Below, in pieces: positions 22,161-31,191 of a stretch of 64,000 bases of DNA (its first letter is position 1; every line of letters starts with the position of its first letter). The stretch is taken from the IMG/VR virus record IMGVR_UViG_3300008448_000004, positions 64,001-128,000 of that record. One strand, written 5' to 3'. The stretch is from a virus. A program made the translations under genes and the position numbers. The notes below the pieces were generated by a model that was not told where the DNA came from, searched no databases, and worked only from the letters and a program-made list of their open reading frames with translations.

Positions 22161-22197
22161 TTGATGCTTTTATATAAATATGCATCAATCTAAAAAG

Positions 22198-26131: not shown

Positions 26132-26208
26132 CTGTTAATATTTTAAATATAGTGACTATTTATAAATATACAAACGGTTTCAGTATCTTTAACTTAAATT
26201 TTTAAAAC

Positions 26209-26376
26209 ATGAAAGAACAAGTATTAGGCCTAGTAAGACACGCTTTAACTTTTGTCGGCGGTATTATCGTCGCTAAAGGACTTCTTGACGAGGCTCTTTT
26301 TCAAGAAGTACTCGGCGGAGTTATGACTCTAGTCGGTGCTGTTTGGTCAATTGCTTCTAAGAAGAAAGCAGCTTAA
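26209..26376 (+). CDS. 55-aa two-TM holin-like membrane protein; the only plus-strand gene
   Basis: Missed by the ORF track: MKEQVLGLVRHALTFVGGIIVAKGLLDEALFQEVLGGVMTLVGAVWSIASKKKAA; followed by its own terminator. Confidence 0.75.
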   Translation: MKEQVLGLVRHALTFVGGIIVAKGLLDEALFQEVLGGVMTLVGAVWSIASKKKAA

Positions 26377-26400
26377 TCTAACTGTTCTCACTTTTTAATG

Positions 26401-26426
26401 AGCCGGCTTTATGCCGGCTTTTTTTT
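26401..26426 (+). terminator. intrinsic terminator
   Basis: AGCCGGC-TTTAT-GCCGGCT followed by a T7 run. Confidence 0.85.
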
Positions 26427-26427
26427 G

Positions 26428-26499
26428 TACTCGGTACGGGAATCGAACCCGTATCTTATCCGTGAAAGGGATACGTCCTAACCGTTAGACGAACTGAGC
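26428..26499 (-). tRNA. tRNA-Glu(UUC)
   Basis: TATCC-CT-TTC-AC-GGATA; one acceptor mismatch. Confidence 0.92.
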
Positions 26500-26502
26500 G
26501 TG

Positions 26503-26573
26503 TTACTCCGACTGGGCTCGAACCAGGAACTGCAGAATCAAAATCTGTCGTGTTACCATTACACCACGGAGCA
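26503..26573 (-). tRNA. tRNA-Gln(UUG)
   Basis: TGCTCCG/CGGAGTA acceptor; loop TT-TTG-AT. Confidence 0.92.
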
Positions 26574-26579
26574 ATGTAG

Positions 26580-26651
26580 TAGAGTAGACAGGGCTCGAAC
26601 CTGCACGCACTTGCTCCCAAAGCAAGGGACCTACCATTGGTCAACTACTCT
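26580..26651 (-). tRNA. tRNA-Pro(UGG)
   Basis: AGAGTAG/CTACTCT acceptor (A1-U72); CTTGC-TT-TGG-GA-GCAAG. Confidence 0.92.
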
Positions 26652-26656
26652 ATTAG

Positions 26657-26728
26657 AGCTCCCATCCGGAATCGAACCGAATTATCTTGATTACAAGTCA
26701 AGTGCATCGCCTGCAATGCTTTGGGAGC
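26657..26728 (-). tRNA. tRNA-Thr(UGU)
   Basis: GCTCCCA/TGGGAGC acceptor; CTTGA-CT-TGT-AA-TCAAG. Confidence 0.95.
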
Positions 26729-26734
26729 TGTTAG

Positions 26735-26807
26735 CGCGGATGGTAGGACTCGAACCTACAACCTTCGGTTTTGGAGACCGCAACTCTACCAATTGAGCTA
26801 CACCCAC
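26735..26807 (-). tRNA. tRNA-Trp(CCA)
   Basis: GTGGGTG/CATCCGC acceptor; CGGT-CT-CCA-AA-ACCG. Confidence 0.93.
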
Positions 26808-26811
26808 GTTT

Positions 26812-27315
26812 CTACTTATTCAATATGTCAATGATCTTCTTCTTTATACCAGCTTCTTTCAGACCCTGGTTATCTTTAGTTCTAACAAACTTATCCCTTG
26901 CATCTCCCTTGTCTAATAGGTCTTTTAAGTCTAAGTCGTCTAGAATAACAAACTGTTTTAAATCAAAGTGATTAATGAAATCCAGCACTTCATTTGCTCG
27001 GTTTTTTTCGAGCCAAGAAAAGCTTACAGGTTTATTCTTTGTAACAGATCTTGGCATTTTATTAATACCGTTATGCTTAAAGATTTCAGCTAACTGAACT
27101 AATCCCCAATGGTGCCTCCAATCAGAACTTACTACAATCTCTGCTTCTGTTTCTTCTACTATTTCGTTTAGGATCTTAACGCATTTCTCATCGAAAGGAT
27201 AAGGTACTCCGAGTTCTTTTGCCCATTCGTATTTTTTCCAAAAGTTAACTCTATTCCTCATAAATTGCTCTTCTGTTGCTACTACTCCGTCGATGTCTAA
27301 AAAAATTACTTTCAT
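26812..27315 (-). CDS. HAD-superfamily phosphatase ('Swiss-army-knife' RNA-repair-associated HAD type)
   Basis: IFLDIDGV, SSDWR, RANEV, FVILDD. Confidence 0.8.
   Translation of the reverse strand: MKVIFLDIDGVVATEEQFMRNRVNFWKKYEWAKELGVPYPFDEKCVKILNEIVEETEAEIVVSSDWRHHWGLVQLAEIFKHNGINKMPRSVTKNKPVSFSWLEKNRANEVLDFINHFDLKQFVILDDLDLKDLLDKGDARDKFVRTKDNQGLKEAGIKKKIIDILNK
26824..26838 (-). promoter_or_regulatory. boxA-like antitermination element AAGATCATTGACATA
   Basis: Resembles the rRNA-operon boxA; lies directly before the five-tRNA run. Confidence 0.55.
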
Positions 27316-27328
27316 ATACTTCAGTTAA

Positions 27329-27360
27329 TAAAAAAGCCCCAGATTTTTATATCCAGGGCT
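27329..27360 (-). terminator. intrinsic terminator (attenuator)
   Basis: AGCCCTGGAT-ATAAAA-ATCTGGGGCT followed by a T run, 13 nt before the HAD ATG. Confidence 0.85.
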
Positions 27361-27387
27361 CTTTGTAAATTCTTATATTGGTAAAAG

Positions 27388-27468
27388 TTATCTTACAATA
27401 CATGCCCTGTTGCTTACTGGTTCTTGCCAGCTAGTCGTGGGGGTTGTGTATGTGTTAGATATCTTCAT
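27388..27468 (-). CDS. 26-aa leader peptide MKISNTYTTPTTSWQEPVSNRACIVR
   Basis: ATG..TAA with TATTTATA 14 nt upstream; its 3' part can pair with the terminator arm. Confidence 0.65.
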   Translation of the reverse strand: MKISNTYTTPTTSWQEPVSNRACIVR

Positions 27469-27509
27469 ATGATTGTTACTTGTATAAATACACTTGATAA
27501 ATAAAAAAC

Positions 27510-28378
27510 GACCTGAGACTACAGTCTTTATGTTAACTCTTTTGCAGCATTATTGATTCTCTGCTTGTCCAGTACCTTTTGAGCACTATGTTAACAATGC
27601 CGGTTGTTAGGTCAACCACCCCTTGAGGTGCTTTTATTGTGGTCTACTCTCTTCTTACTCTAACCGTTCTACCCTGCCGGGCAGATAAGTCCTTGCGGGA
27701 CTACGATCTTTTCATAAGAATCATTATTGGCTTGCGACCTTTAATGGCAATGGACAACCCATTACTGTGTAGGCATCTTTCGACCGCACCTGGCAAGCGC
27801 TTAAGCTTATTATGTTATTGTAATTTTGCAATCCAATGCAAATAAGTTTGACTTGTGGATTATAGAAGTAGTGGCTTGCCCTGAGCCTGCTCAGCTTTTG
27901 GCCGAGTTGATACTCAACTACTCCTTGAGATGTCCCCATCTCGGTTAACTTTAGACTACTTCATTACAACACCTTGGTAGGTAATCGTAAAGGATATTAG
28001 CAGCACCACCTGTTCTACATCTTACCTTTCGGTTTTAAGTACCCTTTCAGTTCTGGGCGTCGCAATAATATGGTTGGATAAACTATATGTCTTGCATGCA
28101 CCCTTCGGGTTAATCTTATTGCTCTTCCGAGCTCAACCAAACGACCCACATCGCTTAGTCTACCAACCACTTTCCCTACAGTGTTACCCTCAGTACTAAA
28201 GGTCAGTAGATATCCCGATTGCATACTCGAGCTCCTTCCGAAAGGAGCCGCAGATCCACTCAGTCAAATGAATCCACTTTATACCGGTTTCCCGGTTTAT
28301 TTAACGACTATATGCCGCCGACTGCTATTTACTACCGATCTTACTCTCGCAAGCGATTTCAGACCTTCGAAGGGATAA
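27510..28378 (-). ncRNA. large (~870 nt) highly structured ncRNA, GOLLD-like
   Basis: No credible ORF; more than 10 hairpins with GNRA/UUCG-type loops; terminal helix GGTCTGA/TCAGGTC; own promoter and boxA; next to tRNAs in a phage. The family name rests on size and context, not a covariance search. Confidence 0.6.
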
Positions 28379-31076: not shown

Positions 31077-31191
31077 AGTTTTAAATTTGTGCTCCCCTTA
31101 GGTGAGCGAGTTAATAAATATGTAACCGAGACCTGTCAAGTATCTCTTGCTTATATAAATATACGTAGTAAAAAAAAGAAAGCCAACTTTT

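Follow-up and report, generated by a model that had tools for sequence, protein, structure and literature searches.

How does late transcription reach a block of phage tRNA genes that begins directly behind a strong transcription terminator? This question is raised by a short cassette that a large freshwater phage carries on the minus strand of a DNA stretch of 64,000 nucleotides (nt), hereafter the window, which corresponds to bases 64001-128000 of the IMG/VR virus record IMGVR_UViG_3300008448_000004 (180,934 bp; GC 37.5%). The cassette consists of a promoter-like motif, a mini-open reading frame (mini-ORF) of 26 codons, a hairpin that spans this ORF and an intrinsic terminator, and it is followed by a HAD_SAK_2 phosphatase gene (hereafter HAD) and a run of five tRNA genes (Table 1). 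The original prediction, made from the DNA letters, saw here a leader-peptide attenuator whose codons mirror the tRNAs that it controls. We propose that the cassette is a candidate translation-coupled transcription attenuator of the leader-peptide type, a reading to which we assign a probability of about 0.45. The idea of a codon mirror is unsupported at this locus, and what remains of the prediction is a switch that is plausible but unproven.

Table 1. Features of the cassette and of its surroundings (positions are counted from the first base of the window).
Feature	Position	Strand	Remarks
GroEL-like gene	30119-28473	-	adjoins the GOLLD RNA on its 5' side
GOLLD RNA, 3' domain	27510-27925	-	Rfam RF02032, 260.5 bits (gathering score 150), full model 1-416
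T-run		-	in gene order, between the GOLLD RNA and the 26-codon ORF
Promoter-like motif GTATTTATA	27483-27491	-	one-mismatch variant of ATATTTAT(A), 23 nt before the mini-ORF start
26-codon mini-ORF (leader peptide candidate)	27388-27468	-	stop codon included
Hairpin 1:2, spanning the ORF	27384-27466	-	begins at the G of the start ATG, ends shortly behind the stop codon
Candidate antiterminator 5' arm, CAGGGC	27404-27409	-	perfect complement of GCCCTG (27359-27354)
Inner antiterminator helix	27363-27398	-	TTGTAAG (27398-27392) with TTTACAA (27369-27363), one G:U pair
Intrinsic terminator	27330-27364	-	14-bp hairpin and a run of six T
HAD_SAK_2 phosphatase gene	26812-27315	-	PF18143, 91.8 bits (gathering score 27.5)
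tRNA genes Trp(cca), Thr(tgt), Pro(tgg), Gln(ttg), Glu(ttc)	26427-26807	-	
Two-way hairpin	26400-26420		between the five-tRNA block and the holin gene
Holin gene	26209-26376	+	PF23987; opposite strand, inside the tRNA island
Separate ATATTTAT motif	26162-26169	-	perfect copy; precedes tRNA(cat) and tRNA-Arg(ccg)

The cassette was compared across relatives of the HAD gene. There are 775 HAD homologues (E <=0.001); only a small clade has this neighbourhood, and lineage A of this clade is formed by the window and near-identical contigs. Lineage B (L002, L003; HAD 89% identical) carries a GOLLD RNA, a leader ORF of 28 codons (L002 375-461), the terminator, HAD, tRNA-Trp alone and the holin terminator. 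Lineage D (L113-L117; HAD 75% identical) has GOLLD, a leader of 26 codons (L113 2348-2428), the terminator and HAD, and its contigs end within tRNA-Trp. In lineages C (L004-L009, L120, L121) and C' (L119), GOLLD is followed by about 50 nt, the same terminator and HAD, with no leader and with no tRNA between HAD and the holin gene. Lineage E (L110-L112; HAD 74% identical) has no GOLLD; a cREC_REC gene, an ORF of 47 codons and a sequence-covaried terminator are followed by tRNA-Phe, Lys, HAD, tRNA-Trp, Arg, Cys, Pro, Ala, Val, Gly and Asn, a tRNA array much larger than that of the window. The HAD tree splits the clade into (A,B), (D,E) and (C',C). The 47-codon ORF was considered as a homologue of the leader and rejected, its local alignment being no better than those of shuffles, and no protein homologues or protein family were found for its product. 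Lineage E thus appears to be an analogous design, and we do not count it as independent confirmation.

The elements named by the original prediction, namely the ORF, the terminator, HAD, the tRNA genes, the two pairings between leader and terminator and the list of codons, were all found in place. It had missed the GOLLD RNA and the late-type promoter motif upstream of the ORF, as well as the leaderless relatives that keep the same terminator. In this terminator, 27360-27351 pairs with 27344-27335 to form a G/C core stem, the loop is at 27350-27345 and the T-run at 27335-27330; with its A:U extension the hairpin reaches -18.4 kcal/mol (z -4.9 against shuffles), and it is absent from the output of a simple terminator scan. 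The end of the T-run lies 14 nt from the HAD start codon, with no room for a promoter, and the claim of a strong terminator directly before HAD and the tRNAs is borne out by its conservation: it is kept in all lineages, including the leaderless C and C' and the GOLLD-less E, and its arms carry compensatory changes in E and C'.

Promoter motifs were sought on both sides of this terminator. The motif ATATTTAT(A) behaves as a candidate late-type promoter that is orientation- and position-specific: 17 of its 34 copies are found on the gene strand 10-40 nt ahead of an ORF of 100 amino acids or more, against 2 of 34 for the reverse orientation and about 2.5 expected by chance. Genes preceded by it include portal, baseplate hub and Hsp20. 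Examples of sites, all on the minus strand, are 26162-26169, 22174-22181 and 31114-31121; several genes begin just 5-8 nt after the motif, which suggests very short 5' leaders. Upstream of the mini-ORF, a perfect copy precedes the leader ATG by 23 nt in lineages B (L002 352-359) and D (L113 2325-2332), at the same distance as the variant in the window, and this spacing is within the range typical of the genes of this phage. Lineage E has a perfect copy 13 nt before its ORF (L110 2045-2052), and in lineages C and C' the motif is missing along with the ORF. Downstream, no ATATTTAT-type motif was found between the terminator and tRNA-Trp, nor before HAD. The Bacteroidota -7 box TAnnTTTG does not occur on the gene strand between GOLLD and HAD; a single copy on that strand lies within HAD (26893-26886), about 80 nt before tRNA-Trp, with no clear -33 partner by eye. 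A "boxA-like" sequence, TTGACATA, was rejected as a promoter: it has 10 copies against 11.8 expected, and its copy before tRNA-Trp falls in conserved HAD codons. As no such motif follows the terminator ahead of HAD or of tRNA-Trp, late transcription of the downstream genes would need read-through.

The unit defined in this way comprises the promoter, the mini-ORF, the terminator, HAD and the first tRNA block. It does not extend to the tRNA genes farther on: tRNA(cat) and tRNA-Arg(ccg) have a promoter motif of their own, and the opposite-strand holin gene and the two-way hairpin intervene. The earlier suggestion that the leader codons ATA and AGG/AGA match tRNAs further downstream is therefore irrelevant to the control of the unit.

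The mini-ORF proved to be real and conserved. Its start, stop and frame are intact in lineages B and D, and its frame is the only one open across A, B and D, the other two being closed. Its start context is A-rich and has no Shine-Dalgarno sequence, as in the genes of this phage. Relative to lineage A, lineage B carries 23 substitutions and two in-frame insertions of 3 nt, and lineage D carries 26 substitutions over 81 nt; random substitutions would keep the start, frame and stop with a probability of 0.05 in D and, allowing for the net indel, of 0.07 x 1/3, about 0.025, in B. Between A and D, seven codon changes are synonymous and ten non-synonymous; codons 5-10 encode identical amino acids by way of three synonymous changes, and codons 11-20 are free. 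Such a pattern fits a leader peptide, for which translating would matter and the product would not; it is also compatible with a non-coding hairpin. A natural variant of lineage A (L102, L103) has leader codon 11 changed from ACG (Thr) to ATG (Met), so that one of the five Thr codons is gone, with no obvious compensating change.

In the minimum-energy fold, the RNA forms the ORF-spanning hairpin and the terminator. The hairpin has an energy of -22.7 kcal/mol in lineage A, -30.4 in B and -26.1 in D, and is more stable than 96-100% of dinucleotide shuffles. Across lineages, 96.5% of the cells of its basal helix are paired (four one-sided changes, one compensatory), and it is retained largely by G:U-compatible changes. 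A hairpin that encloses an ORF is unusual in an ordinary gene and typical of region 1:2 of an attenuator. This bears on the view that the cassette is an independent small late gene, encoding a protein of 26-28 amino acids, with its own promoter and terminator and with no regulatory link to HAD. The promoter motif, conserved ORF and terminator that such a gene would have are indeed present, but a hairpin of -23 to -30 kcal/mol takes up the entire ORF, codons 11-20 in the middle of the peptide show no constraint, and the indel that removes the ORF in C and C' spares the terminator. Moreover, HAD and the tRNAs have no other promoter motif, and the 47-amino-acid ORF of lineage E, the sole one long enough to search, has no protein family. 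We consider a small late gene highly improbable.

In the attenuator that we propose, transcripts would start at the ATATTTAT-like motif and run into the mini-ORF. If no ribosome follows, the 5' and 3' halves of the ORF would pair (1:2), the terminator would form and transcription would stop before HAD. A ribosome that reaches the stop codon (27390-27388) would cover region 2, and the terminator would form again. Only a ribosome lingering at about codons 4-15 would leave region 2 free, so that CAGGGC could pair with the 5' arm of the terminator and the polymerase could read through into HAD and tRNA-Trp and, in this phage, into tRNA-Thr, Pro, Gln and Glu as well. The effect of a ribosome was mimicked by truncating the RNA at the terminator 5' arm and masking its first 30-60 nt. 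In lineages A, B and D, the masked nascent RNA was predicted to pair CAGGG(C/U) with GCCCUG at -14 to -17 kcal/mol in place of hairpin 1:2. The topology under masking is the 1:2 / 2:3 / 3:4 arrangement of classical attenuators, with a predicted stall window of about codons 4-15. A scan against 4227 Rfam families gave as its best sub-threshold matches His_leader (RF00514, 21.8 bits, cut-off 49) and Thr_leader (RF00506, 20.5 bits, cut-off 55); both are below the family cut-offs and are weak evidence, a mere resemblance.

Several results weigh against such a switch. First, a pairing of at least 5 nt with the terminator 5' arm occurs in 58-60% of shuffled leaders, and by a strict criterion a clean switch is seen in lineage A only. 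At equilibrium the terminator (-18.4 kcal/mol) beats all alternatives, even when the leader is masked, and the switch model therefore rests on kinetics. The inner antiterminator helix has an energy of -0.8 kcal/mol alone, and in the window a nearer partner competes with it. This helix shows two compensatory pairs in lineage B and two unpaired cells in lineage D, and its covariation is reached by 35 of 500 shuffles; overall, the covariation is marginal (35/500 and 74/500 shuffles reach the observed values) and comes from three lineages only. Of the two-helix antiterminator originally put forward, the complementary segments are in place and the predicted topology recurs in B and D; its inner helix is feeble and its pairing is no better than in shuffles. 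Second, initiation could be blocked by the hairpin, whose first base is the G of the start codon, and the window variant of the promoter motif, GTATTTAT, is gene-associated in 0 of 14 cases elsewhere in this genome. Third, the leader is dispensable, since lineages C and C' keep the terminator and HAD without it. Finally, if the start and stop codons are held for structural reasons, the chance of ORF retention rises to about 0.44 per lineage, and the substitutions between A and B show no third-position excess in an eye count from the alignment.

These points bring in a second reading, that of a non-coding RNA element in which the ORF would be incidental and the downstream genes would be transcribed by constitutive leaky read-through. 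Two versions can be formulated. The element could be a phage small RNA of about 150 nt, made of the promoter, the long hairpin, an A/U-rich linker and the terminator, or it could be a processing or insulating hairpin which, with the terminator, ends GOLLD and late transcripts before the HAD-tRNA module. Only the hairpin and the terminator are statistically robust, the latter being kept without the leader in C and C' and without GOLLD in E; the start and stop of the ORF do lie in structurally conserved segments, and the comparison of A with B reveals no constraint at the level of the peptide. The non-significance of the antiterminator and the existence of leaderless relatives thus keep this reading alive. 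It does not account so easily for one of three frames being open in all three lineages, for both indels being multiples of three, for the unconditional probabilities of ORF retention given above, for a distance between promoter motif and ATG like that of real genes, or for the synonymous-only change in codons 5-10 between A and D. An incidental ORF on the tail of GOLLD is also at odds with the presence of a promoter motif, with the upkeep of the frame and with read-through being obligatory. We therefore regard a purely non-coding element as possible but on the unlikely side, and retain the attenuator as the working model.

Which signal would such an attenuator read? In the special case originally predicted, the codons of the leader mirror the tRNAs of the operon, and the cassette would act as a sensor of tRNA depletion or cleavage that switches on replacement tRNAs and an end-healing phosphatase. 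The leader contains five Thr codons, two Pro codons and one codon each for Trp, Gln and Glu, in addition to ATA, AGG and AGA. The amino acids of the five tRNAs thus account for 10 of 25 leader codons, compared with 24.5% in the long ORFs of the phage, and TGG-CAA-GAA-CCA are consecutive. A mild enrichment, of 1.5-2 fold, is seen in A, B and D, and all leader-bearing lineages combine tRNA-Trp behind HAD with one Trp codon in the stall window. HAD, too, is in keeping with the idea as a member of an RNA-repair-associated family; the DxD motif (D7, D9) of this predicted phosphatase is invariant in 45 homologues. Phage tRNAs are known to counter defences that target and cleave tRNAs (PMC10264068, PMC11555353, PMC11464382).

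The codon counts themselves speak against a mirror. In lineage A, the binomial P value is 0.063, 7.7% of 25-codon windows taken from genes reach the count, and mononucleotide-shuffled leaders give P 0.09 when amino acids are counted and 0.12 when exact cognate codons are, so that the comparison with shuffled leaders, which had been set beforehand as a check, fails at the 5% level. In the other lineages, binomial P values are 0.20 (B), 0.135 (D) and 0.59 (E). Nor does the codon content follow the anticodons from one tRNA island to the next. The leader of lineage B still has codons for Thr, Pro, Trp, Gln and Glu, with tRNA-Trp alone downstream; lineage D has TGG-CAG-ATT-AGT in place of TGG-CAA-GAA-CCA; and the ORF of lineage E, with at least ten tRNAs, covers its own ten tRNA specificities at 37% against a background of 46.6%. 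The comparison of related islands, which the original prediction had also put forward as a way of checking the antiterminator, thus gave no co-variation of codons, and for the antiterminator it gave compensatory changes in B and mismatches in D. Structure can account for the ACN codons, which make up the CA-rich arm of the hairpin. Two of the tRNAs of the island, tRNA(cat) and Arg(ccg), follow the separate promoter motif. The joint absence of leader and tRNA-Trp in C and C' was rejected as evidence; it concerns one clade and is a single event on the HAD tree, and so carries no statistical weight. The Thr-Pro-Gln-Glu block of the window (26427-26733) is a clean indel of 308 nt relative to L002 1119-1125, with flanks 84% identical, which suggests that the tRNA content turns over much faster than the leader. 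We judge a codon-mirrored sensor very unlikely.

For the attenuator as proposed here, the signal is more likely to be general decoding speed, or decoding at a few conserved codons (Asn5, Thr8, Pro10, Trp14, Gln15), than a codon-by-codon mirror of the tRNAs. The association of the lone Trp codon with tRNA-Trp is a weak hint that survives: in every leader-bearing lineage, tRNA-Trp lies right behind HAD, and the stall window holds one Trp codon with Gln directly after it. This Trp codon would for this reason be the leading candidate for a stall site. That the cassette is a true sensor of ribosome stalling, feeding decoding speed at a few conserved codons back onto late transcription of the phosphatase and tRNA genes, is a stronger claim that we hold to be decidedly unlikely.

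The closest known counterparts are the class I leader-peptide attenuators of enterobacterial operons, such as trpL, thrL, hisL, leuL, pheL and the pheM of pheST. As in these, a short ORF precedes an intrinsic terminator, overlapping helices 1:2, 2:3 and 3:4 are predicted, the stop codon lies inside region 2 and the genes that would be regulated follow without a promoter. In contrast to them, the cassette has no tandem run of one regulatory codon matching the product, a phage phosphatase and tRNA genes stand downstream in place of biosynthetic genes, the type of host is Bacteroidota-like and without Shine-Dalgarno sequences, and the antiterminator is without statistical support. In the PR'-tR' region of phage lambda, the late operon is gated by a terminator that is read through with the help of the Q protein. 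The cassette shares with it a strong terminator just past a late promoter and downstream genes that would rely on read-through, but no antiterminator protein or RNA was identified here, and the mini-ORF overlaps the RNA that could compete with the terminator. In T-box leaders, which carry a specifier loop and a T-box sequence, uncharged tRNA is bound directly. If the cassette is an attenuator, it would share their logic, with decoding or tRNA status controlling a terminator before translation-related genes; the Rfam scan gave no T-box match, and none is expected in this type of host.

GOLLD RNAs occur near tRNA islands and rise during lysis (10.1101/2024.12.08.627333). The GOLLD RNA of the window, whose whole extent including the variable 5' half begins at about 28370 on the minus strand, is the direct upstream neighbour of the cassette, which lies directly 3' of GOLLD and before tRNA genes; that study mentions no mini-ORF or terminator between GOLLD and the tRNAs. 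In lineage E the same design exists without GOLLD. A literature search found no paper in which phage tRNA genes are controlled by a leader peptide. If the attenuator is real, the classical leader-peptide logic, instead of governing a biosynthetic operon, would meter phage tRNA genes together with an enzyme of the RNA-repair type. Experiments on it could then ask whether phages carry tRNAs to supply codons or to escape tRNA-cleaving defences, and a testable regulatory unit would stand beside GOLLD.

The distribution of the cassette was followed beyond the clade. At <=54% HAD identity (80 viral loci), 19 loci were scanned with Rfam and all were without GOLLD; 21 upstream regions were read, and neither the terminator nor a leader was seen in them. 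A scan of viral contigs with the GOLLD 3' motif and the leader motif revealed no further leader-bearing relatives, and a scan of genome contigs gave none either. A 16-mer of the GOLLD core hit 13 viral loci, none with GOLLD. In three related contigs (L092, L094, L096), tRNA-Leu(taa) begins no more than about 10 nt past the 3' end of GOLLD, and no terminator intervenes. In two independent metagenome contigs, L098 (from about 1320 on) and L105 (from about 1275 on), HAD and tRNA-Trp are joined to two different bacterial tRNA-Trp/secE loci. The break lies inside a tRNA-Trp near-identical to bacterial ones, and the joins probably reflect assembly chimerism; an attachment site is the less favoured explanation. 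The joins were rejected as a guide to host identity, as they lead to different bacterial secE loci.

As to the wider genome, ARAGORN found 10 tRNA genes, every one within the window, and long ORFs are distributed between 165 on the minus strand and 7 on the plus strand. Shine-Dalgarno cores are present at 3.8% of gene starts compared with 10% in the background, and the upstream regions are A-rich, a pattern of translation initiation that appears to be of the Bacteroidota type. Beyond the holin gene, in minus-strand order, come tRNA(cat), tRNA-Arg(ccg), an ORF of 100 amino acids, tRNA-Arg(tct) and an RNase H-like gene. The holin gene is among the very few plus-strand genes, and its placement is kept in lineages B, C and C'. 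The hairpin between it and the five-tRNA block reads as a terminator with a T-run on the plus strand only, yet it lies directly 3' of tRNA-Glu on the minus strand. A cREC_REC gene (PF20274) occupies the place between GroEL and the GOLLD or leader position in L110 (1590-2003) and L005 (660-1070), and the window is without this gene. Elsewhere, phage tmRNA genes were found near HAD_SAK_2 or GOLLD loci (L017 350-773, L094 700-1127, L096 2808-3286 and L090 9254-9521), and one contig with the GOLLD motif carries a group I intron.

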